Origin: Candidatus Omnitrophota bacterium | GTDB lineage: Bacteria; Omnitrophota; Gorgyraeia; Gorgyraeales; Gorgyraeaceae | Assembly: GCA_030649895.1 (NCBI GenBank) | Contig: JAUSEX010000057.1 | Coordinates: forward strand, 5,880 to 37,879 | DNA length: 32,000 bases | Reading direction: 5' to 3' | Part shown: piece by piece, positions 5,792 to 24,837 of the stretch | Numbering within the stretch: the first letter of the stretch is position 1 | Layout of the letters: each line of letters opens with the position of its first letter | The notes under the pieces: model-generated | Databases searched by the model: none | Seen by the model: the letters and a program-made list of their open reading frames with translations, nothing else | Told to the model about the DNA's origin: nothing | Position numbers and translations under genes: made by a program

Positions 5792-6514
5792 ATGAGTTTG
5801 CTGGAAAATAAAGATGATTTGAAGGAATTAGTAGAAACGCTGAATTTTAAAGAAAAGGTTGAGAGGTCTTTGGCGCTTATAGAAGAGGCTTATGAAAAGT
5901 ATGGAGACGGGCTGGTGGTTGCAAACAGCCTTGGCAAAGATTCGGTGGTAGTGTGGGATCTTGCTAAAAAGGTGAACCGGAAGATCAGAGGGTTTATTGT
6001 TACCACGAGGTTTAAACCCAAGGAGACTGTAGAATTCATGAATCAGGTTGTGGCGCGATATCCGGAATTGAAAGTCTATAAAAATGACTCAAAAATAGCA
6101 GACAAGCTTTATGAAACCAGCCCTGACAAGTGCTGCGATATATTAAAAGTAGAACCGGTCAAACGGGCTGTTGAGGAAATGAAAGTTACATGCTGGGTTA
6201 CTGGTTTACGCTGCACAGAAGGAAGGACTCGAACAGATTTTAAAGAGGTTGAAGAGCGTGATAAGGGCCTTATCAAGTTGAATCCTATCCTTATCTGGAA
6301 AGAAAGAGAGATATGGCAGTATCTGGCGCTTAATGAGGTTAAGGTGAACCCTCTTTATGCAGAAGGTTACAGGTCGCTTGGATGTTCGCCATGCACAAAG
6401 ATAACCAATGAAGAAGATGAGCGCGCAGGCCGCTGGATCGGGACAAGTAAATGTGGCGGCGAATGCGGCATACACACAAGGCCTTTAAAGACAGTTATAG
6501 GCGCAGGGATATAA
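5792..6514 (+). CDS. cysH: Assimilatory adenylylsulfate (APS)/PAPS reductase, Fe-S cluster type
   Basis: 240 aa. PP-loop-like ANSLGKDSVVVWDL. Cys pairs CCDILKVEP and GCSPCT are characteristic of the Fe-S APS reductases. C-terminal redox motif ECGIH. RBS AAGGAGGGG lies upstream. Confidence 0.9.
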   Translation: MSLLENKDDLKELVETLNFKEKVERSLALIEEAYEKYGDGLVVANSLGKDSVVVWDLAKKVNRKIRGFIVTTRFKPKETVEFMNQVVARYPELKVYKNDSKIADKLYETSPDKCCDILKVEPVKRAVEEMKVTCWVTGLRCTEGRTRTDFKEVEERDKGLIKLNPILIWKEREIWQYLALNEVKVNPLYAEGYRSLGCSPCTKITNEEDERAGRWIGTSKCGGECGIHTRPLKTVIGAGI

Positions 6515-6532
6515 TATGGCTAGGAGCGGTCA

Positions 6533-7504
6533 GTGATTAAATATATTATTTTAATCTTTGTAATGGTTTTTTTCAGCCTTAATATGGGTGCATCAGGCAT
6601 TGCGCCTTCGTTTGCTTCAACTTATGGCGCCAGGCTCATAAAGAAGAAAACCGCTATTTTTCTGTTCAGTTTTTTTGTAATATTAGGCGCTGTTATCCTG
6701 GGTAGAAACGTAGCTATTACTTTAGGAAAGGATTTATTGCCTAAGGAAGTAATGAGGTTTGATGTTGTGCTGGTGGTGCTTGTGGCTGGCGCCCTGAGCC
6801 TTTTTTTGGCAAATGTCCTGAGGATACCTCAGTCCACGAGTCAGGTTACGGTAGGCGCGATTGTGGGCGCCGGGTTGTACTTCAGGCAGATAAACCTGAA
6901 GGTGCTTTGTTTTAAAATACTTCCGGCGTGGGTTATCTTGCCTTTAGTGTCGTATTTTTTAACATTATTGATTTACAGGGCAATATACCCGCCTAAGCAC
7001 GATAATTTTCATATATATGAGAAAATATTTGCCAATGAAAAGAAGATGAAAATTGCTGCCCTGGTGGTCAGCGCATATGTAAGCTTTGCTATCGGTACGA
7101 ATAATGTCGCAAATGCGGTTGGCCCGTTATCAGGCGCAGGGCTAATTGGGATAGGTGCAGGGCTTTTAATTATTGCCCCATTTTTTGGCATAGGCGCTTT
7201 TCTTATGGGGGATGGGCCTCTTGAGACTGCAGGGAAAGAGATAGTGCCCCTGGGGTTAATGTCCAGCACCCTGGTATCTTTTGTTACCGCAACATTGCTT
7301 ATAGTTGCTTCAATTATCGGCATACCTCAGTCATTGGTGCAGCTTAACCTTGCCGCTATATTTGCGATAAGCTGTTTGAAAAACGGCCACAAGTATACCT
7401 GGGACCAGCATATCGTGAAGAAAACTTTTTTCGTGTGGACAATCACGCCTTTACTTTCCGTGGCAGTATCGTACCTGTTATTAAACCTGTTTTTGAAAAG
7501 ATAA
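6533..7504 (+). CDS. cysP: PiT-family anion permease, probable sulfate permease (as B. subtilis CysP next to cysH)
   Basis: 323 aa polytopic membrane protein. It carries the duplicated PiT signature (GASGIAPSFASTYGA and GTNNVANAVGPLSGA). GTG start 6533 follows AGGAG. The gene lies directly after cysH. Confidence 0.75.
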   Translation: MIKYIILIFVMVFFSLNMGASGIAPSFASTYGARLIKKKTAIFLFSFFVILGAVILGRNVAITLGKDLLPKEVMRFDVVLVVLVAGALSLFLANVLRIPQSTSQVTVGAIVGAGLYFRQINLKVLCFKILPAWVILPLVSYFLTLLIYRAIYPPKHDNFHIYEKIFANEKKMKIAALVVSAYVSFAIGTNNVANAVGPLSGAGLIGIGAGLLIIAPFFGIGAFLMGDGPLETAGKEIVPLGLMSSTLVSFVTATLLIVASIIGIPQSLVQLNLAAIFAISCLKNGHKYTWDQHIVKKTFFVWTITPLLSVAVSYLLLNLFLKR

Positions 7505-7902
7505 TGCTTATATTAAAAAAATATTTAGCGGATGAAATAATAGATCATTGTAAGAGAGAATTCCCAAACGAGGCCTGCGGGATACTCGCGGGCAAAGAGG
7601 GAAAGGCTGAAAAGGTTTATGAAATGAAGAATGCCGATGCCAGCCCTTCTACATTTCTCATGGAGCCGAAAGAGCAGCTTTGTATCATGAAGGATATGCG
7701 GAATTCCGGCGTTCAGATGACAGGCATTTATCATTCGCATGTGGCGAGCCAGGCGTATCCTTCAGAACATGATGTGAAGATGGCTTTTTATCCGGAAGTT
7801 TCATACGTGATTATTTCGCTGAAGGATGATAAGAATCCTGTTATAAGGTCTTTCAAGATACAGGATGGAAAGATTAAAGAAGAAGACGTGAGGGTGGGAT
7901 GA
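7504..7902 (+). CDS. JAMM/MPN+ metalloprotease (Mec+/HcyD/CysO-hydrolase type)
   Basis: Start ATG 7504 overlaps the cysP stop (TAATG). EACG glutamate plus HSHVASQAYPSEHD (the HxHx7Sx2D JAMM zinc motif). 132 aa single-domain protein. Confidence 0.88.
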   Translation: MLILKKYLADEIIDHCKREFPNEACGILAGKEGKAEKVYEMKNADASPSTFLMEPKEQLCIMKDMRNSGVQMTGIYHSHVASQAYPSEHDVKMAFYPEVSYVIISLKDDKNPVIRSFKIQDGKIKEEDVRVG

Positions 7903-8930
7903 ACCTGATCGTAGTAGGCGCTAATCATAAATACAGCCCTGTAGAGTTCAGGGAAAGTATGTATTTTTCCAGAAAAAGCTCAGGCGACAGCCTTGATCTC
8001 TTAAAGGAAAGGAGCGTTATTGATGGCGCTGTGATTTTATCTACCTGCAACAGGGTTGAGATATACGTCAGTTCGGAGGATCTGGAAAACGCTGTAGGCG
8101 AGATAAAAGATCTGATTTCCAGATGTCATGGAATAGATATCAGCAGATTTCCTTCATACCTTTATATATATAAGGGCGTTGATGCAGCCAGGCATTTATT
8201 TTCAGTTGCATGCGGCATGGATTCTATGATACCTGGAGAAACGCAGATACTCGAGCAGGTAAAAAACTCTATCGCGGAATCCTGCGGCAAAGGTTTTTTA
8301 GGCTGTTTTTTAAAGGAAATATTTTATTCAGCTGTATCATTCGCGGATAAAATGCATGCCGAAAGCAAGATTTTTAAAGATAGCACATCCATAGGGGCTA
8401 TCGCGGTGGAATTTATAAAAGAGAAGGCCGGAGGCCTGGCAGGTAAAAATATCCTGATAATAGGCGCTGGCAAGGTTATAGAGCTTGTCACTAAACATTT
8501 AGAAAAAGAAACAGCCAGCGTGACATTCATAGCAACGAGGACATTTGAGAAAGCGGATCATCTGTCCAGACAGATCAGGGCGAAGGCAGCCAGATTTGAT
8601 GAGCTGGAAAAATTCCTGGAAGGAGTGGACATTATCATAACTGCCACAAGGAGCCCCTGTTTTATTATTAAACCAGAGATGTTGGGATGCGTAACAGGCC
8701 ATAAAATTTTTATAGTTGACCTTGCTATGCCAAGGGATGTTGACCCTGAGACAAAGAATGTAAATGGGGTGGAATTATTTTATCTGGAGGATTTAAAGAG
8801 CGCGGTTGAGAAAGAATCAGCCGGAAATATCAAGGCAATAGAAGAATTTAAAGAGATCGTAGATATAGAGGCAAAAAAATCATGGAAACGCCTTACAGAA
8901 TTGGAACCAGAACCAGCCTCCTCGCTTTAA
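7899..8930 (+). CDS. hemA: Glutamyl-tRNA reductase (short form, 343 aa)
   Basis: MNLIVVGANHKYSPVEFRE and the active-site STCNRVEIY, plus Rossmann ILIIGAGKV. ATGA overlap with the JAMM gene stop. Confidence 0.9.
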   Translation: MNLIVVGANHKYSPVEFRESMYFSRKSSGDSLDLLKERSVIDGAVILSTCNRVEIYVSSEDLENAVGEIKDLISRCHGIDISRFPSYLYIYKGVDAARHLFSVACGMDSMIPGETQILEQVKNSIAESCGKGFLGCFLKEIFYSAVSFADKMHAESKIFKDSTSIGAIAVEFIKEKAGGLAGKNILIIGAGKVIELVTKHLEKETASVTFIATRTFEKADHLSRQIRAKAARFDELEKFLEGVDIIITATRSPCFIIKPEMLGCVTGHKIFIVDLAMPRDVDPETKNVNGVELFYLEDLKSAVEKESAGNIKAIEEFKEIVDIEAKKSWKRLTELEPEPASSL

Positions 8931-9577
8931 AGCAGGTCGAAGAGGTATTGGGTCTGCTGGGTACTTTTTATCCTGACATGAAAGTGAAGGTTATAGGCAT
9001 AGATACTTATGGCGACAAGGACAATATTACGCCTATCTCAAAGATAGAAGGAACTGATTTTTTTACCAGAGAGATAGATGAGGCGCTCTTAAAAGAAGAG
9101 ATTGATTTTGCCGTTCATAGCGCAAAGGATATACCTGACATATTAAGCCCTGGATTGTCGATTGCCGCCTTTACGTGGTGTTTAGATCCGGATGACGCGC
9201 TGATTTCCAGAGACGGGAAAAAACTGGAAGAGCTTCCGGATGGCGCGAGGATAGGTACATCAAGCAGACGCAGAAAGGATGGATTGAAAAGGCTGAGGCC
9301 GGGTTTACATATCGTAGATATACGCGGAAATATCGAGCAAAGATTAAAGATGCTGGAAGAAAATAATCTGGACGGTATTGTGATAGCAGCCTGCGCTTTA
9401 ATGCGGCTTGGGTTGGAAAGCAGGATAACGCAAAGGATTGCGGCCAGGGATATTAAGCCTCATCCGATGCAGGGCAGGCTGGCAATAGTGACGCGGCAGG
9501 ATGAAAAAGATTTGGCGGGGTTATTTAGCGCTCTTGATGACAGCAGGAGATTATGCGGGGGAGTTGCTGAAAAATGA
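8882..9577 (+). CDS. hemC: Hydroxymethylbilane synthase (porphobilinogen deaminase), domains 1-2 only (231 aa)
   Basis: YRIGTRTSLLALKQ, DFAVHSAKDIP, IGTSSRRR, DIRGNIEQRL and GIVIAACALMRLGL match HemC. The ORF ends at ..LDDSRRLCGGVAEK, before the region that in E. coli HemC holds the cofactor Cys242 and domain 3. It overlaps hemA by 49 nt. Confidence 0.8.
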   Translation: METPYRIGTRTSLLALKQVEEVLGLLGTFYPDMKVKVIGIDTYGDKDNITPISKIEGTDFFTREIDEALLKEEIDFAVHSAKDIPDILSPGLSIAAFTWCLDPDDALISRDGKKLEELPDGARIGTSSRRRKDGLKRLRPGLHIVDIRGNIEQRLKMLEENNLDGIVIAACALMRLGLESRITQRIAARDIKPHPMQGRLAIVTRQDEKDLAGLFSALDDSRRLCGGVAEK

Positions 9578-11025
9578 AAAATTGTAAGGTTTATTTAATA
9601 GGGGCCGGCCCATGCGGCGCAGATCTGATTACAGTGCGCGGCCTTAAGATATTACGCCAGGCAGATGTGATTATTCATGATTATCTCGTGGACAAGGCGC
9701 TTTTAGAAGAGGCAAAGCCCGGTTCAGAGCTTATCTCGTGCGAAGGTTCCGGCAAAAAAAGTTATTCCGGAAAATCCGGACAGGCGCAGAAAAAGATAAA
9801 TGATTTAATAGTAAAAAAGGCTAACCAGGGCAAGCGGGTAGTGAGGCTCAAAAACGGCGATCCCTGCATTTTCAGCAGGATATCCGAGGAGATAAGTTCT
9901 TTGGTAAAAAATAAAATAGAATATGAAATTGTGCCGGGCGTGACCGCAGCTGATACAGCGGCTTCTTTCACAGGCGTTCCTCTTACAGACAGGCGTTTTT
10001 CTTCAAGCGTTGTTTTTGTGACAGGACACGAAGAGGCAAATAAGGGAGCTGATTCAATCAACTGGAAGCATATAGTGAATATAGGCACGATAGTCCTTTA
10101 TATGTCAGTCAGGCGCATAGCGGATATCGCGGGTAAACTTATGGCTCTTGGGAAATCCTGGGATACGCCGGTTATCGCTATTTCCAAAGCAGGTTCCATA
10201 GATCAAAAAATCTCAAGTTCGCGCTTGAAGGATATCTCTTTAGCGGTAAAGAAAGATGGTATTGTTTCGCCCGCTATATTTATAATAGGGGCTACAGCCG
10301 GTCTTGAAAAACAGTTTAACTGGTTTAGAAAAAATAAACGCATTTTATTCACAGGTCTGTCTGGCGAAAGATTTTTTATAAAAGGGACGTATTCTCACCT
10401 GTCTCTGATCAAGATAGAGCCTCTAGAAGACTATAACGAGTTCGACAATTATATAAGAACCATTTCCGACTCCGTGAGTCGCCGTGCGGGTACGGCGACT
10501 CACGGAGTCGGAAAGGCGTTCGATTGGATTGTTTTTTCAAGCCGGTTTGGCGTAGAGTATTTTTTTAAAAGGCTTAAAGGGCTCGGGCTAGACGCCAGGG
10601 CTCTTGTTGGCGTTAAAATAGCGGCCATTGGGAATTGTACGAAAGAAAGGCTTATGGATTTTACTATATCAGCTGACCTTGTGCCTGAGGAGGAATCTTC
10701 AAAAGGCCTGATTGATGAATTCAGGAAATTGGATATTAAAGGCAGGAAAATATTTTTGCCTCGTTCAGATATCTCTGATAAGGGCCTGGAAAGGGAGTTT
10801 GAAAAGCTTGGCGCCAAGGTAACCTCAAGCTTTGCATATAGAAACGTTATGGCTAAAGGCCTGCCTGATCTGGATATAAATTTGTTTGATGAAATAATGT
10901 TTACAAGCCCGTCAGGCGTAAGAAATTTTATAAAAAGATACGGCAAGCCGCTTAAAAGAGTTAGAATAACTTGCATAGGCGATGTTACAAAAAAAGAGGC
11001 GGAGAGATGCGGTTTGTTAGGTTAA
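9574..11025 (+). CDS. cobA/hemD: Bifunctional uroporphyrinogen-III C-methyltransferase / uroporphyrinogen-III synthase
   Basis: N-terminal VYLIGAGPCGADLITVRGLKILRQADVIIHDYLV, RLKNGDPCIF and VPGVTAA indicate SUMT. C-terminal ILFTG.., FDWIVFSS.. and IMFTSPSGVRNF indicate HemD. ATGA overlap with hemC. Confidence 0.9.
   Translation: MKNCKVYLIGAGPCGADLITVRGLKILRQADVIIHDYLVDKALLEEAKPGSELISCEGSGKKSYSGKSGQAQKKINDLIVKKANQGKRVVRLKNGDPCIFSRISEEISSLVKNKIEYEIVPGVTAADTAASFTGVPLTDRRFSSSVVFVTGHEEANKGADSINWKHIVNIGTIVLYMSVRRIADIAGKLMALGKSWDTPVIAISKAGSIDQKISSSRLKDISLAVKKDGIVSPAIFIIGATAGLEKQFNWFRKNKRILFTGLSGERFFIKGTYSHLSLIKIEPLEDYNEFDNYIRTISDSVSRRAGTATHGVGKAFDWIVFSSRFGVEYFFKRLKGLGLDARALVGVKIAAIGNCTKERLMDFTISADLVPEEESSKGLIDEFRKLDIKGRKIFLPRSDISDKGLEREFEKLGAKVTSSFAYRNVMAKGLPDLDINLFDEIMFTSPSGVRNFIKRYGKPLKRVRITCIGDVTKKEAERCGLLG
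10463..10514. repeat. Perfect 23-bp inverted repeat (6-nt spacer) lying in frame inside the HemD domain
   Basis: TTTCCGACTCCGTGAGTCGCCGT (10463-10485), gcgggt, ACGGCGACTCACGGAGTCGGAAA (10492-10514): exact reverse complements. Each arm is itself a small palindrome (CGACTC-nnn-GAGTCG). The repeat is GC-rich relative to its surroundings and encodes ..SDSVSRRAGTATHGVGK.. Confidence 0.9.
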
Positions 11026-11975
11026 GAAAAAACAGGATTAATCAGCGGATAAGGGATTTATCCAGCGAGACAAGGATCTCAGCAGGGGATCTGGTTATGC
11101 CTTATTTTGTTATAGAAGGAAAACATAAAGTTAAGCCGATAAAATCAATGCCGGGTATATCCAGGCTGTCCATAGATAATCTGGTCAGAGATATAAAAGA
11201 GGCCGGAAGATCAGGCGTAAGATCAGTCCTCCTTTTCGGGGTATGCGATAAGAAAGATAAGTTTGGCCTGGAGGCCTATTCAGAAACAGGCATTGTCCAG
11301 AGGGCTGTAGCGGCGGTCAAAAAAAATATAAAGGATATAACCGTGATTACCGATGTATGCTTATGCGGCTATACCTCTCACGGGCATTGCGGGATTTTAA
11401 AGGCTCAAGGAGATATTATCGATAATGATAAAACATTAGAGATTCTGGCGAAGATTGCTTTTTCTCATGCAGAAGCAGGCGCTGATTTTGTTGCTCCGTC
11501 TGCAATGATGGATGGCCAGGTAAAGGCGATACGAGAAGTCCTGGATAGAAATAATTTTAAGGCTGTGAAGATATTTGCATACTCGGCAAAGTACGCCTCA
11601 AATTTTTATTGGCCTTTCAGAGACGCGATGGGTTCAAGCCCGAGGTTCGGCGACAGGAAGGATCATCAGATGGATTTCAGGAATTCCGATGAGGCCTTGA
11701 AAGAGATCAGCGAAGATATCAAAGAAGGCGCCAGCGTAGTTATGGTAAAACCCGCCCTGGCGTATCTGGATATTATATCCAGGGCAAGGCAGGCCTTTAA
11801 CGTGCCTATCGCGGCTTATAATGTAAGCGGTGAATATGCGTTGTTAAAAAATTATAGCCAAAACCGGGAATCGGAGAAAAAACTGGTATTAGAAATACTT
11901 ACGGGCATAAAAAGAGCGGGTTCAGATATTATTATTACGTATCACGCAAAAGAGGCGGCAAGATGGTTAAAATAG
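11007..11975 (+). CDS. hemB: Porphobilinogen synthase (ALA dehydratase), zinc type
   Basis: Start ATG 11007 (MRFVRLRKN..) follows GGAGAG. Cys-rich zinc site DVCLCGYTSHGHCG and Schiff-base lysine context VMVKPA. Confidence 0.92.
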   Translation: MRFVRLRKNRINQRIRDLSSETRISAGDLVMPYFVIEGKHKVKPIKSMPGISRLSIDNLVRDIKEAGRSGVRSVLLFGVCDKKDKFGLEAYSETGIVQRAVAAVKKNIKDITVITDVCLCGYTSHGHCGILKAQGDIIDNDKTLEILAKIAFSHAEAGADFVAPSAMMDGQVKAIREVLDRNNFKAVKIFAYSAKYASNFYWPFRDAMGSSPRFGDRKDHQMDFRNSDEALKEISEDIKEGASVVMVKPALAYLDIISRARQAFNVPIAAYNVSGEYALLKNYSQNRESEKKLVLEILTGIKRAGSDIIITYHAKEAARWLK

Positions 11976-13174
11976 CGGATAAGGAATTATTTAATGAAGC
12001 TAAAAGGTATATCCCGGGCGGCGTCAATAGCCCTGTCCGCTCTTTTAAAACAGTCGGAGGGAGCCCCGTATTTATTAAAAAAGCAAAAGGCTCAAAGATA
12101 TACAGCGAAGATGGCAGGGTATTTATTGATTACTGCCTCTCGTGGGGGGCTTTGATCTTTGGCCATGGCTATCCTGATGTGGTTCGCGGGATAAAAAAAG
12201 CGGCGTCTAACGGCGTAAGTTTTGGCGCAGCTACAAAGTTAGAATCCGAATTCGCAAAACTTATCACAGCCGCTATGCCTTCTATAGAACAGCTCAGATT
12301 AACGAATTCCGGCACAGAGGCGGTAATGGCTGCGATAAGGCTTGCAAGGGCTTATGCTAAAAGAGACAAGATCGTTAGATTTCAGAACTCTTATCATGGC
12401 CATGCAGATTATCTTTTAAATTGCGAAGGGGTGCCGGAAGATTTTAAAAGGCACACCCTTACTGCGCCATATAACGATATAAAGAAAACAAAGGACCTGC
12501 TAATAAGACATGGAAAGGATATCGCGGCAATAATCGTAGAGCCTGTTACGGGGAATGCAGGCGTTATCCCGCCTGAAAAAGGCTTTTTGCAAAGTTTAAA
12601 AAAACTATCCGACAGGTTTGGCATTGTCTTGATCTTTGACGAGGTTATTACCGGGTTCAGGCTTTCCTACAGCGGCGCTCAAGGGCATTTTAATGTAAAA
12701 CCTGATCTGACATGCCTTGGGAAGATCATAGGGGGAGGATTGCCTGTAGGGGCGTTCGGCGGCAGAAAAGAAATAATGAAATTACTTGCGCCAATAGGGC
12801 CGGTATATCAGGCAGGCACCTTTTCAGGTAATCCAATTACAGTTACAGCAGGCATAGTTACTTTAAATGAGTTAAAAAGGCTTAGCCCGTATGAAGAGCT
12901 AAGCAGAAGAACAGAGCGGTTATCGAGCGCCATAAGATTAAAGGCAGAAGATTATGGCGTAAGGCTTAAGGTCAATAATGTCGGCTCAATGTTCAGCGTG
13001 TCTTTCAGCGATTCCGGTTTATTCAAAAGATTTTTTCATTGTCTTTTAAGCCTGGGGATTTATTTTTCTCCTTCGGAATCCGAAACAGATTTTTTATCAG
13101 CAGCGCACAGCGATGATGATATAAATAGTACATTAATTGCGGTTGACGAAGTTTTTAAAAATTTAAGGGGGTAA
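11963..13174 (+). CDS. hemL: Glutamate-1-semialdehyde 2,1-aminomutase
   Basis: YIPGGVNSPVRSFKTVGG, FDEVITGFR, and PLP lysine in CLGKIIGGGLPVGAFGG. Confidence 0.93.
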   Translation: MVKIADKELFNEAKRYIPGGVNSPVRSFKTVGGSPVFIKKAKGSKIYSEDGRVFIDYCLSWGALIFGHGYPDVVRGIKKAASNGVSFGAATKLESEFAKLITAAMPSIEQLRLTNSGTEAVMAAIRLARAYAKRDKIVRFQNSYHGHADYLLNCEGVPEDFKRHTLTAPYNDIKKTKDLLIRHGKDIAAIIVEPVTGNAGVIPPEKGFLQSLKKLSDRFGIVLIFDEVITGFRLSYSGAQGHFNVKPDLTCLGKIIGGGLPVGAFGGRKEIMKLLAPIGPVYQAGTFSGNPITVTAGIVTLNELKRLSPYEELSRRTERLSSAIRLKAEDYGVRLKVNNVGSMFSVSFSDSGLFKRFFHCLLSLGIYFSPSESETDFLSAAHSDDDINSTLIAVDEVFKNLRG

Positions 13175-13178
13175 TGGA

Positions 13179-14315
13179 ATGCCAAGCATATATCTGAACG
13201 GGAAAAAAGAGGAGCTTGAACCCGGCGTGACTATAGCCAGGCTTTTAGAAGTTAAAAAAATAAAGCCTGAAGCGGTTACGGTGGAATTAAACGAGAAGAT
13301 TATCGATAAAAACGAATATCCAACGGTTACGCTGAATTCCGGGGACAGGCTGGAATTTGTTTACTATATGGGAGGCGGCTCTCCTTTTTCAGACAGGGTG
13401 GCGGAGAATACCCTTGAATTGATCGGAAAGACCCCCATGGTGAAGCTGAATAAGATAGTTGAGCCTGGCATGGCGACTATTCTCGCGAAGCTTGAATTTT
13501 ACAATCCGGCCGGCAGCGTGAAAGACAGGATCTGCTTTTCAATGATAGATGATGCGGAGAAAAGAGGTTTGATTAAAAAAGGTTCAACTGTGATAGAACC
13601 TACAAGCGGCAATACCGGTATAGGCCTTGCAATGATATGCGCCGTAAAGGGGTATAAGTGTATTCTTACCATGCCTGAAACCATGAGCCTCGAAAGGATA
13701 TATACGCTCAAGTCCTATGGCGCAGAGGTAGTGCTTACGCCTGGCCAGGAGGGGATGGCAGGAGCCATAAAAAAGGCGGAGGAATTTTTAAAAAAGATTC
13801 CCAATAGTTTCATGCCGCAGCAATTTAAAAATAAAGCTAACCCTGAGACCCACAGGAATACTACAGCGAAAGAAATATTGGAAGTTACAAATGGGGAGAT
13901 AGGCGCGTTTGTCTCAGGCGTAGGGACAGGCGGCACCATAACCGGGGTTGGAGAGATATTGAAGCAAAAAAATCCAAAGATCAGGATTGTCGCTGTTGAG
14001 CCAAAATCAAGCCCGGTGCTTTCCGGAGGGAAGCCAGGGCCTCACAAGATCCAGGGTATAGGCGCAGGATTCGTACCTGATGTTTTAAACAGGGATATTA
14101 TAGATGAGATAATTACCGTGGATGACCAAAGCGCGTTTAAAACCTCAAAGGCCCTTGCAATGCAGGAAGGTTTATTTGTGGGTATTTCAAGCGGGGCAGC
14201 TGTGTGGGCGGCATTAAAAGTTGCAAAGGAACTAGGAGAAGGTATGGTTATAGTTGTGATCCTGCCTGATTCCGGGGGCAGGTATTTTTCAATGCAGCAG
14301 TATTTTGAGGCGTAA
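13179..14315 (+). CDS. ThiS-like sulfur-carrier domain fused in frame to a CysK-type cysteine synthase (O-acetylserine sulfhydrylase)
   Basis: Residues 1-67, MPSIYLNGKKEELEPGVTIARLLE..VTVELNEKII..LNSGDRLEFVYYMGGG, have ThiS length and pattern and end in Gly-Gly-Gly. Residues from ~75 on form a complete CysK ([71 protein letters not shown]). There is no stop codon between the two parts. Confidence 0.85.
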   Translation: MPSIYLNGKKEELEPGVTIARLLEVKKIKPEAVTVELNEKIIDKNEYPTVTLNSGDRLEFVYYMGGGSPFSDRVAENTLELIGKTPMVKLNKIVEPGMATILAKLEFYNPAGSVKDRICFSMIDDAEKRGLIKKGSTVIEPTSGNTGIGLAMICAVKGYKCILTMPETMSLERIYTLKSYGAEVVLTPGQEGMAGAIKKAEEFLKKIPNSFMPQQFKNKANPETHRNTTAKEILEVTNGEIGAFVSGVGTGGTITGVGEILKQKNPKIRIVAVEPKSSPVLSGGKPGPHKIQGIGAGFVPDVLNRDIIDEIITVDDQSAFKTSKALAMQEGLFVGISSGAAVWAALKVAKELGEGMVIVVILPDSGGRYFSMQQYFEA

Positions 14316-14337
14316 ATTAGCCAGGATAGGAGAAAAG

Positions 14338-15195
14338 ATGAGCGAATATACTTTAGGCGAATTAAAAAGCGGCGGTTTGATGAAACAGAAGGAAAAGGAT
14401 CTATTTTCTCTGCGGCTCAGAATAGTTGGAGGGTTTGTTAACGCCTGCCAACTGGTTAAGCTTTCAGAGATAGCGGATAAGTACGGCAAAGGGCATATAC
14501 ATCTGACTACCAGGCAGGGCGTTGAGATTCCGAACATTAATATTAAAGACGTTGAAAATATAAAAAAAGAGCTTGGCGAAGCCGGGCTCCAGATGGGCGC
14601 CTGCGGCCAGAGGGTAAGGACTGTAACCGCATGCCAGGGTAAAGAATGTTCGCATGGCTTAATAGACTGTTTTTCATTGGCTGAAGAGATTGACAGGGAA
14701 TATTTCGGCATAGGCGGCCATCCGCATAAATTTAAGATAGGCATTACCGGCTGCCCTAACGGGTGCATTAAGCCTCAGGAAAACGATTTGGGCATAATGG
14801 GGAAGTTGAGGAAAAAATTTATAAAAGAAAACTGTAATTTTTGCGGGTTGTGCGCCAGCGTATGCCCTGTAGGCGCCATAGAAGTAAACAAAAAACCTGA
14901 TGATATAGTGTTTAATGAAGGTAAATGCATAGGCTGCGGGGATTGTGTCCACAGCTGTCCTACAAATGCATGGCAAAAAAGGCAGGAGGGGTACAGCGTA
15001 TTTGTCGGAGGCAAAATGGGCAAGTTTCCAAAGCTCGGCATAAAGGCGTTTGATTTTATCGAAACAAAGAAAAAGGTTTTGGAGATCATAAAAAATACCC
15101 TGGAGTTTTATAAAAAATTCGGGGAAAAAGGCGAGAGGTTCGGGGATACGCTGGACAGAGTAGGTGTCGAGAAATATAAAAAGGCGGTTATATGA
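14338..15195 (+). CDS. Small assimilatory-type siroheme sulfite (nitrite/sulfite) reductase with inserted 2x[4Fe-4S] ferredoxin domain
   Basis: ATG 14338 follows AGGAGAAAAG. The block LRLRIVGGFV..QLVKLSEIADKYGKGHIHLTTRQGVEIP (NiR/SiR ferredoxin-like half domain) is followed by TACQGKECSHG and ITGCPNGC (siroheme-[4Fe-4S] cysteines). Two ferredoxin motifs are present: CNFCGLCASVCP and CIGCGDCVHSCP. Confidence 0.82.
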   Translation: MSEYTLGELKSGGLMKQKEKDLFSLRLRIVGGFVNACQLVKLSEIADKYGKGHIHLTTRQGVEIPNINIKDVENIKKELGEAGLQMGACGQRVRTVTACQGKECSHGLIDCFSLAEEIDREYFGIGGHPHKFKIGITGCPNGCIKPQENDLGIMGKLRKKFIKENCNFCGLCASVCPVGAIEVNKKPDDIVFNEGKCIGCGDCVHSCPTNAWQKRQEGYSVFVGGKMGKFPKLGIKAFDFIETKKKVLEIIKNTLEFYKKFGEKGERFGDTLDRVGVEKYKKAVI

Positions 15196-15428
15196 ATGAA
15201 ATAAAGCCCGATAGCGTATTAGACCTTAAGGGAGTAGCCTGCCCTAGTAATTTTGTAAGGGCAAAACTCAGGCTTGAAGATATGCAGAAAGACGAGATCT
15301 TGGAGATTATTATCGACGACGGCGAACCAATTAAGAATGTGCCGCGCTCTATAAAAGAAGAAGGCCATCAGATTTTAAAAGCGGAAAAAGTAGATAATTA
15401 CTGGAAATTGGTAATTAAAAAACAATGA
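15192..15428 (+). CDS. tusA: TusA/SirA-family sulfurtransferase
   Basis: 78 aa. VLDLKGVACPSNFVRAKLRLEDM carries the conserved TusA active-site Cys. ATGA overlap with the sulfite reductase stop. Confidence 0.8.
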   Translation: MNEIKPDSVLDLKGVACPSNFVRAKLRLEDMQKDEILEIIIDDGEPIKNVPRSIKEEGHQILKAEKVDNYWKLVIKKQ

Positions 15429-15438
15429 GGTGATTTTA

Positions 15439-16662
15439 ATGAGTTATGTAAAAGGGTTAAAATGCAGGGAGTGCGGAAGGCGCTATCCAAAAGAGCCGAT
15501 CTATGTCTGCGAATATTGTTTCGGGCCGTTAGAGGTGGATTACGATTACGAGAAGATAAAAAAGAAGCTGACTATAAAAGAGATAGAATCCAGGCCTAAA
15601 ACTATGTGGCGCTACAGAGAGCTTCTGCCTATTGATAAGGAACCTATAGTAGGGCTTCAGACGGGCTTCACCCCTTTAATAAGAGCCAGGAACCTGGAAA
15701 AGGCCTTGGGCGTGAAAGAGCTGTACTTAAAGGATGATTCTGTAAATCACCCGACCATGTCTTTTAAGGACAGGGTTGTAAGCGTGGCGTTAGCCAAGGC
15801 AAAAGAATTTGGATTTGAGACAGTGGCTTGCGCGTCTACAGGAAACCTTGCGAATTCAGTGGCAGCCCAGTCAGTAGTGGCTGGTTTTAAAAGGTATATA
15901 TTTATACCTGCCGATCTTGAGATGGGCAAGGTTATAGGGACCTTGATTTATAATCCGGTGCTCGTAGCAGTTGAAGGGAATTATGACCAGGTGAATAGAC
16001 TGTGTTCGGAAATCGCCATGAAATACAAATGGGCGTTTGTGAATATAAACATAAGGCCCTATTATGCTGAAGGCTCGAAGACTTACGGCTATGAGATTAT
16101 AGAGCAGTTAGGATGGAAAGCGCCAAGACATATTATAGTCCCCTGCGCGGGCGGGTCTCTTATTACTAAAATATGGAAGTCCCTGAAGGAATTCAAGGAC
16201 ATGGGTTTTATCGACAAGATTGATACAAAGATATACGCCAGCCAGGCTACAGGCTGCAGTCCGATAACTACTGCAATAAAAGAGAACCTTGAGATAATAA
16301 AGCCTGTTAAGCCGAATACTATTGCAAAGTCGCTTGCCATCGGTAACCCTGCTGACGGGGTTTATGCTATCGGGGCTGTAAAAGAATCCGGCGGCTGGGC
16401 AGAGGATGTGTCTGACGAGGAAATAGTGGAAGCAATTAAACTTTTAGCTTCAACCGAAGGGATATTCACCGAAACAGCTGGCGGGGTGACGCTGGGCACT
16501 GCAAAAAAACTTATTGAACAGGGAAGGATCCCGAAGAATGAGTCTATAGTTGTTTGCATAACAGGTAATGGCCTGAAAACGCAGGAAGCTGTTAAAGATA
16601 AGATAGGAAAACCGTTCAGGATAAAACCTGCGCTGGATTCTTTTGAACAGGCAATCAGTTAA
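15439..16662 (+). CDS. Threonine-synthase-family PLP enzyme with N-terminal Cys4 zinc ribbon (ThrC, or a sulfur-carrier-dependent homocysteine synthase of MetM type)
   Basis: MSYVKGLKCRECGRRYPKEPIYVCEYCFGPLEV, PLP lysine in HPTMSFKDRV, ASTGNLANS, and the glycine loop VPCAGGS. It lies immediately upstream of a MoaD-like carrier and an E1. Confidence 0.8.
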   Translation: MSYVKGLKCRECGRRYPKEPIYVCEYCFGPLEVDYDYEKIKKKLTIKEIESRPKTMWRYRELLPIDKEPIVGLQTGFTPLIRARNLEKALGVKELYLKDDSVNHPTMSFKDRVVSVALAKAKEFGFETVACASTGNLANSVAAQSVVAGFKRYIFIPADLEMGKVIGTLIYNPVLVAVEGNYDQVNRLCSEIAMKYKWAFVNINIRPYYAEGSKTYGYEIIEQLGWKAPRHIIVPCAGGSLITKIWKSLKEFKDMGFIDKIDTKIYASQATGCSPITTAIKENLEIIKPVKPNTIAKSLAIGNPADGVYAIGAVKESGGWAEDVSDEEIVEAIKLLASTEGIFTETAGGVTLGTAKKLIEQGRIPKNESIVVCITGNGLKTQEAVKDKIGKPFRIKPALDSFEQAIS

Positions 16663-16677: not shown

Positions 16678-16956
16678 ATGTCAATAAAAGTCAGGATTCC
16701 AACGCCGCTTCAGAAGATGACTCAGAATAAAACTGAGGTGGAGTTAAGCGGATCCAATATAAGGGAATTGATCGATGACCTGGAGCGTAATTTCCCAGGC
16801 ATCAAGGAAAGGATCTGCGATGAAAAAGGTAAAATCCGCAGGTTTATAAACATCTATGTGAACGAAGAAGATATCAGGTTCTTAAAACAGGACCAGACCT
16901 CTCTTAAGGATGGCGACGAGATTTCAATAATTCCAGCTATCGCAGGAGGCTCGTAA
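16678..16956 (+). CDS. MoaD/ThiS/CysO-family ubiquitin-like sulfur carrier with C-terminal GG-Ser
   Basis: 92 aa. ..LKDGDEISIIPAIAGGS: the diglycine is followed by a single extra residue. RBS GGGGG lies upstream. Confidence 0.85.
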   Translation: MSIKVRIPTPLQKMTQNKTEVELSGSNIRELIDDLERNFPGIKERICDEKGKIRRFINIYVNEEDIRFLKQDQTSLKDGDEISIIPAIAGGS

Positions 16957-17768
16957 TGAAATTGCGCGATGACCAGATTGAAAGATATTCGAGACAGATA
17001 TTGCTTCCTAATATAGGAGGGAAAGGCCAGGAGAAATTGTTAAACGCAAAGGTCCTGGTGATAGGCGCGGGCGGATTAGGTTCTCCTTGCTTATTATATC
17101 TAGCTTCAGCAGGGATCGGGACGCTTGGCATCGTGGATTCAGATAAGGTTGAGCTGAATAATCTGCAGCGCCAGATAGTTCATTCCGTTAATACAGTGGG
17201 TAAGTCAAAGGTGGAGTCTGCGAAAGAGAGGTTGAGTGCTATAAACCCTGACGCGAAGATTATATCTTATGACGCAAGGCTCACATCAGCTAATATCCTG
17301 GATATTATCAAGGATTACGATATGGTTGTAGATGGTTCGGATAATTTTCCAACAAGGTATTTAGTTAATGACGCCTGCGTTTTTTCCAAAAAGCCATTGT
17401 CGCATGGCGGTATATTCAGATTTGACGGCCAGGCATTAACTATCTTACCGGGCAAGTTTGCTTGTTATAGGTGCCTGTTCCCAGAGCCTCCGCCTCCAGG
17501 ACTTGTTCCGAGTTGTCAGGAAGCAGGGATACTTGGCGCAGTTGCAGGGGTAATAGGTACTATACAGGCAAATGAAGTTTTAAAATACGTGCTTGGCATA
17601 GGAGAGCTGTTGACAGGAAAACTTCTTGTGTTCAACGCCTTGGACTCGTTCTTCCGGCAGGTAAAGGTTCCAAGAGACCCAAAATGCCCAGTATGCGGAG
17701 CAAATCCCAGCATAACCAAGCTTATAGATTATGAACAATTCTGTCAGATAAGAAAAAAGGAGGCGTAA
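16956..17768 (+). CDS. ThiF/MoeB/HesA-family E1-like adenylyltransferase (no rhodanese domain)
   Basis: RYSRQILLPNIGGKGQEKL..VLVIGAGGLGSP..DSDKVELNNLQRQ, and zinc cysteines CYRC .. CPVC. TAATG overlap with the carrier gene. Confidence 0.9.
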   Translation: MKLRDDQIERYSRQILLPNIGGKGQEKLLNAKVLVIGAGGLGSPCLLYLASAGIGTLGIVDSDKVELNNLQRQIVHSVNTVGKSKVESAKERLSAINPDAKIISYDARLTSANILDIIKDYDMVVDGSDNFPTRYLVNDACVFSKKPLSHGGIFRFDGQALTILPGKFACYRCLFPEPPPPGLVPSCQEAGILGAVAGVIGTIQANEVLKYVLGIGELLTGKLLVFNALDSFFRQVKVPRDPKCPVCGANPSITKLIDYEQFCQIRKKEA

Positions 17769-17772
17769 TAAA

Positions 17773-18012
17773 ATGGCTAAACAAATGCTGCATTTAATAT
17801 TTCCTCAGAAGCTGATTAAAAAGCCTGTAATTTACACTATGGCAAAGAAATACGATGTTGTGCCGAATATAAGAAGGGCGAAGATTACTGAAACAGTCGG
17901 GGAAGTTACGCTGGAATTAAACGCCACGGAAGAAAATCTTAAAAAGGCGCAAAGATATTTAGAAAAAACAGGGATTAAGATTGAACTTGTTGTGGGCGAT
18001 ATAGTAGAATAG
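17773..18012 (+). CDS. Stand-alone NIL-domain protein
   Basis: 79 aa. LIFPQKLIKKPVIYTMAKKYDVVPNIRRAKITETVGEVTLEL..LEKTGIKIELV resembles the NIL domain found at MetN C-termini and in the methanogen NIL-ferredoxin partner of COG1900. Confidence 0.7.
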   Translation: MAKQMLHLIFPQKLIKKPVIYTMAKKYDVVPNIRRAKITETVGEVTLELNATEENLKKAQRYLEKTGIKIELVVGDIVE

Positions 18013-18029: not shown

Positions 18030-18135
18030 GAAGAAGGCGACGGGGAGGTTGCAGGCAGCAGCCTGAGAGTTCTGCTTATTTCTAGCAGATTACCCGGTAA
18101 ACCTGATCTGGATAATGCCAGCGTAGGGATGGATG
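18030..18135 (+). promoter_or_regulatory. TPP (THI-box) riboswitch aptamer
   Basis: CGGGGAGG..GCCTGAGAG..TTACCCGGTAAACCTGATCTGGATAATGCCAGCGTAGGGATGG contains the invariant CUGAGA, ACCUGAUCUGGAUAAUGCCAGCG and AGGGA elements. It lies upstream of thiE. Confidence 0.93.
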
Positions 18136-18139
18136 CGAT

Positions 18140-18174
18140 AGGCCCTTATGTTTTGGCGTAAGGGCCTTTTTTTG
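18140..18174 (+). terminator. Riboswitch expression-platform intrinsic terminator
   Basis: AGGCCCTTA (18140-18148) pairs with TAAGGGCCT (18159-18167), followed by a T7 run, 10 nt before the thiE ATG. Confidence 0.85.
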
Positions 18175-18184
18175 GAGAAAAAAA

Positions 18185-18823
18185 ATGCAGAAGATAGACG
18201 ATTATAGCTTATACCTTGTAATAAGCGAAGAGTATGGTCTTGGTAAAAGCGCGCTAGAGATAGCAAGGCTTGCTATCTTAGGCGGGGTTGATATTATACA
18301 GATGAGGGAAAAGAGCAAAACCGGGAACGAGCTGGCGAAACTCGCTTGCGAGCTTTCGATGCTTTGCAAAGAAAAAGGCGTCGCGTTCATAGTGAATGAT
18401 GACCCGTTGATAGCTAAAGAAAGCGATGCCAGCGGCGTGCATCTTGGGCAAGAAGATATGCAGAAATATACCGTAACCGGGGCAAGAAAAATTATCGGAA
18501 AAGGCAAGATAATTGGCATCTCAACTCATTCTGTAGCTGAAATAGAAAGGGCGAATAAAGATGACGTTGATTATATAGCTTTTGGGCCTATTTTCCCGAC
18601 AAAGGCAAAAAACTATTTTATAGGCATCAAGGATATTAAAGAAGCGTTAAAGGTTGCCAAAAAACCATTGGTTTTTATAGGCGGCATTAACCTGTCTAAT
18701 CTGGATGAGATTTTAAAAGAAGGCGGGAAAAATATAGCTTTGATCAGGGATATAATACAGGCTGAGGATATCGCTGGCATGGCTGGTAATTTTAAGAAAA
18801 GGCTTGAAAAAGAAAAGGGCTGA
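18185..18823 (+). CDS. thiE: Thiamine-phosphate synthase
   Basis: 212 aa. YLVISEE.., [38 protein letters not shown], and IGGI. Confidence 0.9.
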
Positions 18824-18830
18824 GGATCAT

Positions 18831-19619
18831 ATGGACGATATATTGACCATAGGCGGAAGAGAAATAAATAACCGGCTATTTATCGGCACCGGCAAGTTTT
18901 CCAGTTATTTGCTGATGAGAGACGCCCTGGAGGCCGCAGAGCCAGATGTCGTTACTGTTGCGCTGAGACGGATCGATATCGGTTCAAAGACAGACAACAT
19001 CCTGGAGTATATTCCAAAAAAATGCATAGTTATGCCGAATACTTCCGGCGCAAGGAACGCTGGCGAGGCTGTGCGTATCGCAAGGCTGGCTAAATCAGGC
19101 GGAGCAGGCAATTGGATAAAGGTGGAAGTGATACGGGACAACAAATATCTCCTTCCGGATAATCTTGAAACCTTGAAGGCCACCGAGGTTCTTGCGAAAG
19201 AAGGCTTTGTCGTGCTTCCGTACATGAGCCCGGACTTATCAATGGCCCAAAGGCTTGTTGATGCAGGCGCAGCCGCTGTTATGCCGCTGGGGTCTCCCAT
19301 AGGAAGTAATAGAGGAATCAAGACAAGAGAACTTGTCGACATAATGATCCGCGAGATAAGACTTCCTGTTATAGTAGACGCGGGTTTAGGTGTGCCGTCC
19401 GATGCCTGTGAGTGTATGGAGATCGGATGCGCGGCAGTGCTTGTCAATACCGCCATTGCTATAGCTAAAGATCCGGCTAGTATGGCAAAAGCATTCAGGG
19501 AGGCGGTTAGCGCGGGCAGGCGCGCATATCTTGCAGGCCTTTCTTCCGCCGGAAAACATGCGACAGCGTCTTCGCCGCTTACCGGGTTTCTGCGAAAAGA
19601 AGAAAGCGCGTCCATTTAA
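18831..19619 (+). CDS. thiG: Thiazole synthase
   Basis: Start ATG 18831 follows [47 protein letters not shown], and [12 protein letters not shown]. Confidence 0.92.
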
Positions 19620-19655
19620 GATACGGTCGCAGCCGTACCCGCAGGGAGGCTTGTA

Positions 19656-20768
19656 GTGAGTTTTTACGAAATCTACGCAAAATATAAAAACCTTCCATTT
19701 GAAGATATTTTTTATAATGTCTCGCCTAGAGACGTAGATGCGGCAATTAACTCCGAGAGGCGGGATGAAAGCCAATTTTTAGCGCTCCTTTCTCCGGCTG
19801 CTGAAAATTACTTGGAAGATATGGCTCAGGAGGCGCATAGTTTAACATTAAGGCATTTCGGCAAAACCATCCAGCTATACACGCCCATGTATTTATCCAA
19901 TTATTGTGAAAATGAATGCGCCTATTGCGGATTCAATTCCAGAAACGATATTGCCAGAAAAAAATTAAGCCTGGAAGAAGTGGAAAAAGAAGCCGCGTTT
20001 ATTACGTCAACAGGGCTCGAGCATATTTTAATACTGACGGGAGAGTCCAGAGAAAAGAGCTCGCCGGAGTACATAAGAGACTGCGTCAGGGTATTAAAAA
20101 AATATTTTAGCTCGATATCGATAGAAATATATGCGTTAACAGGAAGAGAGTATGCCCGGATAGCGGCCGAGGGCGTAGACGGATTGGCCTTGTATCAGGA
20201 AACATATGATGAGGGAATTTATGATAAGGTGCACAAGCGAGGGCCTAAAAAAGATTATTTATTCCGGCTCGACGCTCCGGAAAGGGCAGCAAAAAATGGT
20301 ATCAGGAATGTAAACATAGGAGTTTTATTGGGGCTGAATGACTGGCGGAGAGATATTTTCTTCATGGGGTTTCATGCGAAATATCTTCAGGATAAATTTT
20401 ATGATGTAGAAATAGGCGCATCTATACCAAGGCTCAGGCCTCATGCCGGGGATTTTAAGATATCGGGTGATCTCAGTGACAGGAATATAGCGCAGATAAT
20501 CACAGCTTTGAGGATTTTTCTGCCGCGCCTCGGGATTACGATATCGACGCGGGAAAGCCCTCAGCTCAGGGAAGGCTTGCTGCCGCTCGGCGTTACCCGT
20601 ATGTCAGCAGATTCCTCTACTGCGGTAGGCGGGCACACTATAAAACCTCGCGGGGGATTGAATTCGCCTCAATTTGAAATTTCAGATACTAGAAACGTGG
20701 AAGAGATAAAGGCCATGTTAACGGCGAGAGGATATCAGCCGGTCTTAAAAGACTGGATGCAAATATAA
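19656..20768 (+). CDS. thiH: 2-iminoacetate synthase (tyrosine lyase), radical SAM
   Basis: GTG 19656 lies 6 nt after GGGAGG. Radical-SAM CENECAYCGF. Length and position after thiG fit ThiH. Confidence 0.88.
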   Translation: MSFYEIYAKYKNLPFEDIFYNVSPRDVDAAINSERRDESQFLALLSPAAENYLEDMAQEAHSLTLRHFGKTIQLYTPMYLSNYCENECAYCGFNSRNDIARKKLSLEEVEKEAAFITSTGLEHILILTGESREKSSPEYIRDCVRVLKKYFSSISIEIYALTGREYARIAAEGVDGLALYQETYDEGIYDKVHKRGPKKDYLFRLDAPERAAKNGIRNVNIGVLLGLNDWRRDIFFMGFHAKYLQDKFYDVEIGASIPRLRPHAGDFKISGDLSDRNIAQIITALRIFLPRLGITISTRESPQLREGLLPLGVTRMSADSSTAVGGHTIKPRGGLNSPQFEISDTRNVEEIKAMLTARGYQPVLKDWMQI

Positions 20769-23820: not shown

Positions 23821-23862
23821 ACTTCTGGCCGCATACGCCTGGATTACGACAGGGCTCTGGGT

Positions 23863-23885
23863 CAAATTTTACTTTGTAAAATTTG
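23863..23885. promoter_or_regulatory. Perfect 10-bp palindrome CAAATTTTAC-ttt-GTAAAATTTG abutting the cysK Shine-Dalgarno (candidate operator or 5'-UTR hairpin)
   Basis: Read directly. GGAGGG at 23885-23890 and ATG at 23896. 22/24 nt are identical to 1751-1774. Confidence 0.55.
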
Positions 23886-23895
23886 GAGGGTAACT

Positions 23896-24822: not shown

Positions 24823-24837
24823 AGGAGGATCCTGTAT

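Follow-up and report, generated by a model that had tools for sequence, protein, structure and literature searches.

A ThiS-type sulfur carrier fused to a CysK-type cysteine synthase in Omnitrophota is a probable precursor for release by a co-encoded JAMM protease

Adenylation of a ubiquitin-fold sulfur carrier by its E1 enzyme needs a free carboxylate on the carrier. Here we describe a gene of a Candidatus Omnitrophota bacterium (assembly GCA_030649895.1, contig JAUSEX010000057.1; positions 13179-14315 of the 32,000-nucleotide stretch that we analyzed, hereafter the window) that encodes a ThiS-type carrier fused to the N-terminus of a CysK-type cysteine synthase. We propose that it probably encodes a precursor and not a permanently fused enzyme, and that a JAMM protease would cut the product after Gly67 to release a carrier that is then thiocarboxylated for client enzymes. 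Carriers extended by one or two C-terminal residues and trimmed by a JAMM protein reportedly operate in W. succinogenes (HcyS-Ala, with HcyD, HcyF and MetY) and in P. fluorescens (QbsE-CF, with QbsD). Linear fusions to whole proteins are also processed: M. tuberculosis MoaX is cleaved at the Gly82|Ser83 bond and has no activity without this cleavage (PMC4326299), the D. radiodurans JAMM protein DR0402 cuts the MoaD-MoaE fusion DR2607, and HvJAMM1 cuts linear SAMP fusions (PMC8832034). In passages on these families, Iyer, Burroughs and Aravind predicted in 2006 that JAB proteins free ThiS and MoaD domains fused to other proteins, placed JAMM proteases outside the classical thiamine pathway, and noted thiS beside cysteine synthase genes in Chlorobi; these passages do not mention a ThiS-CysK fusion (PMC1779556). 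In amino-acid synthesis, Mec+ hydrolyzes the CysO-cysteine amide as part of Mec+/CysO/CysM chemistry (PMC3227635), W. succinogenes MetY takes sulfur from a carrier thiocarboxylate (PMC8191291), and a thiocarboxylate route to homocysteine through MetM, MetO, MoeZ and Mec (Hasebe 2024) is summarized in 10.1101/2024.10.14.618325.

Of the described systems, the JAMM-processed MoaD-MoaE fusions come closest to the window gene in mechanism, and CysO/CysM/Mec+ and HcyS/MetY/HcyD come closest in pathway logic. Like MoaX, DR2607 and the SAMP1-MoaE fusion of H. volcanii, the window product starts with a ubiquitin-fold carrier that has a conserved Gly-Gly at the joint, and a Ser follows the Gly-Gly both here (G67|S68) and in MoaX (G82|S83). 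Furthermore, fusions of the MoaX and DR2607 type are matured by a JAMM/MPN+ protein, and the window cluster encodes a JAMM protein with an intact motif. In contrast to the MoaD-MoaE fusions, the window carrier is ThiS-type, its partner is a pyridoxal phosphate (PLP)-dependent cysteine synthase, and cleavage is predicted. Moreover, the partner is a candidate client and not an established one, whereas the released carrier would probably also serve thiazole synthesis.

The original prediction described one uninterrupted open reading frame (ORF) joining a ThiS-like domain to a complete CysK, and profile searches bore this out. The 378-amino-acid product derives from a single stop-free ORF on the forward strand. 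Residues 1-67 scored 69 bits against the NCBIfam thiS equivalog TIGR01683 (cutoff 37.45) and 36 bits against Pfam ThiS PF02597 (cutoff 22.5), and the full TIGR01683 profile (1-64/64) aligned to residues 4-67, its end coinciding with G67. After a spacer of 6-12 amino acids, residues 80-373 scored 456 bits against the cysK equivalog TIGR01139 (cutoff 350.95); the PLP lysine (SVKDR) and the substrate loop (TSGNTG) are present in the translation and the fold is complete. With the stand-alone CysK of the window this part shares 59% identity, including the long identical blocks that had been quoted as a sign of their paralogy. Its nearest solved structures were 2egu and M. tuberculosis CysK1 (2q3b, 58% identity), Foldseek gave template-modeling scores of 0.88-0.90 against CysK structures, and none of the PDB matches was a chain covering both domains.

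In the primary product (junction-spanning sequence ...YYMGGGSPFSDR) 311 residues follow the GGG, and the free C-terminal Gly-Gly carboxylate of the ThiS family is therefore missing; as first argued from the ORF, the fused carrier cannot expose such a carboxylate without processing. From the sequence, G67 is the predicted mature C-terminus and G67|S68 the predicted cleavage site. An AlphaFold2 (AF2) model of the fusion had a mean predicted local distance difference test (pLDDT) score of 84 with both domains well modeled, but pLDDT fell below 50 at residues 64-66 and averaged 55 over residues 61-70. Because confidence drops exactly at the joint, the joint is predicted to be flexible and exposed. 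The predicted TM score of 0.75 is dominated by the large domain and so is uninformative on ThiS-CysK docking. Two other ways of separating the two halves of the window gene were rejected. There is no nearby stop after GGG in either alternative frame that could yield free ThiS by frameshifting or readthrough. Against an internal CysK start stand the Ser codon (TCT) at residue 68, the position of Met87 within the fold, and the lack of a Shine-Dalgarno sequence at a suitable distance from the next in-frame GTG (13398). The Gly codons GGA GGC themselves form a Shine-Dalgarno-like GGAGG, in the window (13368-13382) as well as in homologues.

The same architecture recurred widely. ThiS and PALP domains occurred together in 120/120 of the best clusters from a 5.8-billion-protein database (73-100% identity), at lengths of 376-384 amino acids and, in one case, 419; named members were labeled 'cysteine synthase A' of Candidatus Omnitrophota metagenome-assembled genomes (MAGs), and one was identical to the window protein. 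A scan of one genome per GTDB species with a junction-centered alignment (A1) returned 80 loci (L001-L080), and in 62 of these ThiS and CysK lay within one stop-to-stop ORF. The loci were labeled mostly Omnitrophota, with further labels of Saganbacteria/WOR-1/Margulisiibacteriota, Zixiibacteriota, Dictyoglomaceae, Caldisericota, Ratteibacteria and Sumerlaeota MAGs. Moreover, a Logan per-run assembly (SRR13727527; a 14-kb contig that falls inside the window) encoded an identical fusion protein in the same gene order. Among 1.84 billion representatives searched exhaustively by HMMER with residues 1-120, one full-length sequence crossed the junction, alongside several fragments whose linkers were quite different. 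Thus, given its presence in every cluster, in most loci and in an independent assembly, the fusion is genuine and conserved and no assembly error, which answers the concern first raised over a masked stop codon.

We then compared what follows the Gly residues among homologues. GGG was invariant in 62/62 fused loci and in 119/120 clusters. The linkers that join it to the first helix of CysK (ELIGxTP) were 3 to 23 amino acids long and unrelated in sequence, and included SPFSDR…, EGNMKL…, QVS, AVA and GLDERKEKKCGVKV…. In about 17 loci thiS and cysK were adjacent separate genes. Some of the ThiS proteins ended at GGG-stop, and many unfused ones carried arbitrary tails after GGG (YAF, RYAF, VGLV, EENAK, IYFIQELTVK…), as did close stand-alone relatives, including P0127 and P0129 (GGGIH, GGGYVSE). 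In L067 and L072 thiS (…GGG-(R)YAF-stop) overlapped the start of cysK (ATG CCT TTT AG., encoding MPFSDR) in the +1 frame, and deleting one base from this layout produces the fused GGG-MPFSDR form, which 42 of the 120 clusters have. L060 presented a separate case, with an in-frame TAA at about 10190-10195 between ThiS …MGGG and CysK (AGRTRRAKNILELIG…) and no start codon after it; this TAA may reflect a sequencing error or a recent pseudogene, or it may be read through.

The partner of the carrier also varied. ThiS-GGG was fused to a TusA domain in L066 (9977-10426, labeled Pacearchaeota) and in protein P0136, and in L126 (10781-12223) it formed the N-terminus of a MetY-like O-acetylhomoserine sulfhydrylase (Cys_Met_Meta_PP) encoded near CysK and E1 genes. 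Reduced clusters (L079, L080 and L071) retained ThiS and E1, and JAMM, without the partner CysK. In L079 (248-547) the ThiS tail GGGERELGLVKHVLEFIGNKYTFD (VLEFIG) is what remains of the N-terminus of a lost fused CysK, with JAMM and E1 kept.

A second carrier is encoded directly upstream of the E1 gene, and its Gly-Gly is blocked by a single residue (AIAGG-S-stop). The fused domain had been called the only ThiS-type sequence in the window; this second carrier contradicts that wording, and the fused domain is the sole ThiS only by the thiS equivalog and ThiS HMM. Across L002-L077 the MoaD-like carrier ended in GG-stop in 12 loci and bore 1-6 extra residues in about 30 (R, SQ, GR, SR, AS, ASPANA...). 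In five loci (L040 at 12370-13509, L045, L051, L056 and L064) it was fused straight to the N-terminus of E1 (…PAIAGG|TDFREDQIERYSRQ…), with Pfam ThiS and ThiF in a single ORF of 368-380 amino acids. By analogy with HcyS-Ala, the carriers with extra residues should need C-terminal trimming. As in the HcyS, QbsE and MetO systems, the window genes form a sulfate-assimilation cluster with a sulfite reductase, a setting in which PLP sulfhydrylases use a thiocarboxylate, and the Streptomyces MetO/MetM/Mec/MoeZ layout is matched by the ThrC-like gene and the GG-Ser carrier; the extensions there are one or two residues long, whereas a whole 311-amino-acid enzyme follows the fused carrier. The ThrC-like, MoaD-like, E1 and JAMM genes fit the MetM/MetO/MoeZ/Mec route in family and gene order, orthology to the Streptomyces proteins aside, and the ThrC-like gene may, by this analogy, encode a MetM-type homocysteine synthase served by the carrier next to it.

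Together, these comparisons suggest that the sequence following the Gly-Gly of either carrier is evolutionarily free, as would be expected if it is always removed, and the co-encoded JAMM protein is the obvious agent. The original prediction had offered precursor-style proteolytic release and an in-cis mechanism as alternatives; the comparative data favor release and speak against the latter.

The fusion and its predicted processing enzymes belong to one gene string, as had been noted for the JAMM and E1 genes. In the window the string runs from 5792 to 18012 with its genes overlapping or abutting (Table 1). The order common to nearly all loci is Rrf2 - PAPS reductase - PiT permease - JAMM - (hemA, C, D, B, L) - ThiS-CysK - sulfite reductase - TusA - ThrC-like - MoaD-like carrier - E1 - NIL. 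The JAMM motif E..HSHVASQAYPSEHD (E…HSHx7SxxD) is intact in the window protein, whose PDB matches included 2kks and PfJAMM1 (5lda). JAMM was present in 43 of the 46 loci with a long enough flank, and its motif was intact in 47/47; we predict from its sequence and context that it matures both carriers and hydrolyzes their adducts with amino acids. The E1 protein scored 290 bits against the MoeB subfamily model NF004281 (cutoff 266), was present in all 49 loci reaching beyond the ThrC-like gene, and is the predicted activator of both carriers. For the sulfite reductase we adopted the start at 14338, following the gene call in L161; the longest ORF begins at 14305. In L004 (11226-13553) a 775-amino-acid sulfite reductase is itself fused to TusA. 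A pathway involving HcyBio/DUF39 and NIL proteins has been described (PMC5764234), and with its second, separate CysK-HcyBio set the organism can apparently reach cysteine as well as homocysteine by two parallel routes.

Table 1. Coordinates of the fusion gene, its surrounding gene string and other sulfur and thiamine genes of the window
Feature	Position	Strand	Evidence or remark
ThiS-type sulfur-carrier domain, residues 1-67	13179..13379	+	TIGR01683, Pfam ThiS; end EFVYYMGGG
Linker SPFSDR, residues 68-73	13380..13397	+	Low AF2 confidence at joint; homologue linkers variable
Complete CysK-type O-acetylserine sulfhydrylase domain, residues 74-378, and stop codon	13398..14315	+	TIGR01139, PDB, Foldseek
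PAPS/APS reductase and PiT-family permease, start of string	5792..7504	+	Pfam PAPS_reduct, PHO4; order conserved in L001-L080
JAMM/MPN+ metalloprotease	7504..7902	+	Pfam Prok-JAB, E 8.5e-25
hemA, hemC, cobA/hemD, hemB, hemL (tetrapyrrole/siroheme branch needed by sulfite reductase)	7899..13174	+	Pfam; between JAMM and fusion in most loci
Small sulfite reductase (NIR_SIR and two 4Fe-4S motifs), predicted sulfide source	14338..15195	+	Pfam
TusA-family sulfur-transfer protein	15192..15428	+	Pfam TusA, E 7e-21
Threonine-synthase-like PLP enzyme with N-terminal zinc ribbon	15430..16662	+	PALP and NinF ribbon; thrC-family scores
Free 92-amino-acid MoaD/CysO/MetO-like carrier	16678..16956	+	Pfam ThiS, E 8.6e-18; TIGR01687 MoaD family
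MoeB/ThiF-type E1 adenylyltransferase, 270 amino acids, ThiF domain only	16956..17768	+	Pfam ThiF, E 2.9e-85
NIL-domain protein, end of carrier cluster	17773..18012		
TPP riboswitch, then thiE-thiG-thiH	18031..20768	+	Rfam RF00059, 60.3 bits (riboswitch 18031-18146); Pfam; TIGR02351 thiH
Rrf2 - stand-alone CysK (23896-24822) - HcyBio/DUF39 homocysteine enzyme	23368..26043		

Two further genes of the window have unusual architectures. A SpoVG homologue (1217-1690) carries a zinc ribbon (Pfam DZR / Zn_Ribbon_1, residues 82-104) inserted into its SpoVG domain, and a PAS histidine kinase with a C-terminal, cyclic di-GMP-binding PilZ domain (20908-22875) followed by a stand-alone receiver (22891-23280) sits between the thi operon and the Rrf2-CysK set.

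In the mechanism that we propose, the JAMM protein of the same operon would cut the 40.7-kDa product after Gly67 into a ThiS-type carrier of 7.5 kDa, whose ...GGG carboxylate would be free, and a CysK of 33 kDa. The single E1 of the cluster would adenylate the carrier, and sulfide from the adjoining sulfite reductase, possibly passed on via TusA, would turn it into the thiocarboxylate. ThiS-COSH would, more likely than not, feed ThiG/ThiH, whose operon has lost its own thiS and thiF. With a chance just short of even, it might also feed its birth-partner CysK in a CysO/CysM-like reaction, the ThiS-cysteine amide then being hydrolyzed by JAMM. The same JAMM would mature the GG-Ser MoaD-like carrier, which would serve the ThrC-like (MetM-like) homocysteine synthase. 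The fusion itself would have arisen when a one-base insertion or deletion joined overlapping thiS and cysK genes, and would have been tolerated because everything after GGG is removed anyway.

The case for ThiG as a client comes from the thi operon downstream. The thiamine pyrophosphate (TPP) riboswitch operon thiE-thiG-thiH had been reported to lack thiS; we found neither thiS nor thiF in it, and no further ThiS HMM match in the window. Among 80 metagenome loci around close ThiG relatives (67-85% identity), 72 had a usable upstream flank. Of these, 64 carried thiS directly upstream of thiG, and thiF was present in 26 of the 33 among them with enough downstream sequence. The 8 loci without thiS included the four closest relatives of the window ThiG (81-85%), and none of the 3 assessable thiS-less loci had thiF. 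JAMM sulfur-cluster genes lay in the flanks of 4/8 thiS-less loci compared to 4/64 others (Fisher p = 0.004). L004 and L053 share the thi layout of the window, without thiS or thiF, and thiS-less thi operons are physically joined to the sulfur cluster in the window, L004, L053, L089, L125 and L146. In L004 and L053 ThiG seems extended at its N-terminus, but a hidden ThiS there was rejected: the extensions gave no ThiS HMM match and probably reflect the choice of the longest ORF. Because thiS-less thi operons also lack thiF and adjoin the cluster, and because reduced clusters keep ThiS and E1, it appears to be the sulfur cluster that provides the functions of ThiS and ThiF, and on balance we think that the released ThiS supplies ThiG. 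Like canonical ThiS in the ThiS/ThiF/ThiG/ThiH pathway, the fused domain passes the thiS equivalog and ends in GGG, as does B. subtilis ThiS, and ThiG and ThiH are encoded 4.5 kb downstream of the fusion, behind the riboswitch. It differs from the canonical pathway in lying outside the thi operon, in its fusion to CysK, in the lack of a dedicated thiF, and in belonging to a separate clade: the cluster-type ThiS proteins (80 tips) are about 57% identical among themselves but share only about 34% identity with the ThiS proteins of thi operons in sister lineages, with end signatures of EFVYYMGGG versus EI[IV]SFVGGG.

The link to cysteine synthesis is somewhat less likely. In its favor are the retention of thiS-cysK fusion or adjacency across phyla, the separate housekeeping CysK, the distinct clade of cluster-type ThiS and the ThiS-MetY fusion of L126. 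The window shares with M. tuberculosis CysO/CysM/Mec+/MoeZ a carrier adjoining a cysteine synthase, a JAMM protein, an E1 and a sulfur-assimilation context, and M. tuberculosis CysK1 beside CysM parallels the second, conventional CysK of the window (the Rrf2-CysK-HcyBio 'free-sulfide' set). In contrast to the mycobacterial system, the carrier is ThiS-type and not MoaD/CysO-type, the synthase is CysK-type and covalently joined, and the E1 has no rhodanese domain. Indeed, the fused synthase stayed below the cutoffs of both CysM models (303 bits against TIGR01138 cysM, cutoff 394; 300 against NF008735, cutoff 413), and the E1 scored 345 bits against the MoeZ model NF005902 (cutoff 647). The suggested resemblance to CysO/CysM/Mec+ thus holds for the logic and fails for family membership. 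Because of the type of synthase and the missing rhodanese domain, we give supply of CysK by the released ThiS slightly less than an even chance. Supply to ThiG and supply to CysK are not mutually exclusive; the full scheme, in which one JAMM-freed ThiS from a CysK polyprotein is the common sulfur donor for cysteine and thiazole and shares its E1 with a second, homocysteine carrier, is tentative and on present evidence rather unlikely.

Several points weigh against the proposed precursor and its clients. Our data show the architecture, its conservation, the gene context and the complementary loss of thiS and thiF, from which we infer cleavage, the protease responsible, thiocarboxylation and the client enzymes. 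JAMM accompanies unfused forms too and is not specific to the fusion, and it could act only on carrier-amino-acid adducts. In the 42/120 homologues in which Met directly follows GGG, with GGAGG formed by the Gly codons before it, internal initiation is a possible source of free CysK; it would not free ThiS. The CysK part groups near sulfide-using enzymes and is related to the CysO-dependent CysM at family level only. Given its separate clade and low identity to thi-operon ThiS, the cluster-type ThiS is no more than a putative partner of ThiG. Finally, thiS and thiF were searched for in the window, and a canonical thiS-thiF pair may exist elsewhere in the genome.

The strongest rival explanation accepts cleavage but holds that the two halves are unrelated: ThiS would serve only thiazole synthesis, CysK would be an ordinary sulfide-dependent enzyme, and the fusion would be a neutral one-base indel. 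A single base does separate the split from the fused forms, and the existence of ThiS-TusA and MoaD-E1 fusions suggests that the partner is whichever gene lies downstream. The sulfide-using type of the CysK part, the reduced clusters that retain ThiS and E1 without it, and the thi operons devoid of thiS and thiF fit this explanation as well. It does not, however, account for fusion or adjacency of thiS and cysK being kept across several phyla, nor for a distinct cluster-type ThiS clade, and the genome already has a separate housekeeping CysK. In L126 a ThiE-ThiS fusion (5166-6011; ThiS C-terminal, GGG-stop) beside thiG-thiH is ThiG's own ThiS, yet a second ThiS, closer to the cluster type than to the thi-operon type, is fused to the MetY-like sulfhydrylase, a member of the enzyme class that in Wolinella draws sulfur from a carrier thiocarboxylate. 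We consider a mere passenger relationship unlikely, though a serious contender.

A released carrier that serves only the fused CysK, as a CysO analogue, with thiazole synthesis relying on another ThiS or sulfur source encoded elsewhere, is improbable. The separate ThiS clade with its distinctive EFVYYMGGG end and the placing of a carrier next to its client, as in CysO/CysM and MetO/MetM, are what it would predict; against this, the fused domain scores above the cutoff of the thiS equivalog, and thi operons without thiS have no thiF either and are physically linked with the cluster. The exclusivity of the fused ThiS fails, as the second carrier could in principle be the partner of CysK.

We regard as very improbable a permanent fusion that is never cut, in which ThiS would be a docking, regulatory or solubility domain or would support unprecedented chemistry at an internal Gly-Gly. 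Cleavage is itself a prediction, which leaves room for such a protein. However, an invariant GGG followed by a linker varying from 3 to 23 amino acids is what a cleavage and carrier site predicts, and not a structural hinge. Moreover, some orthologues are free proteins that stop at GGG, an E1 can adenylate only a free carboxylate, and the thi operon needs a ThiS. Passages in Iyer et al. do note a ThiF with an N-terminal ubiquitin-like domain that co-occurs with free ThiS and probably has another role (PMC1779556), whereas the uncleaved MoaX carrier fusion is inactive (PMC4326299). An artefact, in which a sequencing or assembly error masks a stop or frameshift after GGG, would be in line with related loci in which one base (L067, L072) or an in-frame TAA (L060) separates the two parts, but has virtually no chance against the same in-frame junction in 120 clusters, in 62 loci of different studies and phyla and in Logan SRR13727527.

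Our literature search found no paper describing a ThiS-CysK fusion. Thus, the fusion is real, widespread in uncultured phyla and, as far as we found in the literature, uncharacterized, as the original prediction had supposed. The principle is not new, because JAMM cleavage has been shown for MoaX and for the Deinococcus MoaD-MoaE fusion and was predicted in 2006 for ThiS/MoaD. What is new here is the pairing of ThiS with a cysteine synthase; release of carriers from linear carrier-enzyme fusions by JAMM proteins was known.

If our reading is true, this would be the third experimentally approachable polyprotein-style sulfur carrier and the first that combines ThiS with a PLP enzyme, and thiamine synthesis in several large uncultured phyla would need a deubiquitinase-like maturase and an E1 shared with amino-acid sulfur assimilation. 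The label 'cysteine synthase A' hides the only ThiS of the locus in the thiS equivalog sense, so metabolic reconstructions would call these organisms thiS-deficient and possibly thiamine auxotrophs; an annotation rule follows. The family is also a natural experiment in which obligatory C-terminal processing makes the loss of a stop codon neutral and promotes gene fusion, with ThiS-CysK, ThiS-TusA, ThiS-MetY and MoaD-E1 fusions all within one cluster family. The reading would gain in interest if cysteine and thiazole synthesis both drew on a single carrier released from one precursor. Were this shared donor real, a CysK-type enzyme would have evolved the use of a thiocarboxylate independently of mycobacterial CysM, and Omnitrophota, Margulisiibacteriota/Saganbacteria and further candidate phyla would depend on ubiquitin-style precursor processing and recycling to make thiamine, cysteine and methionine.

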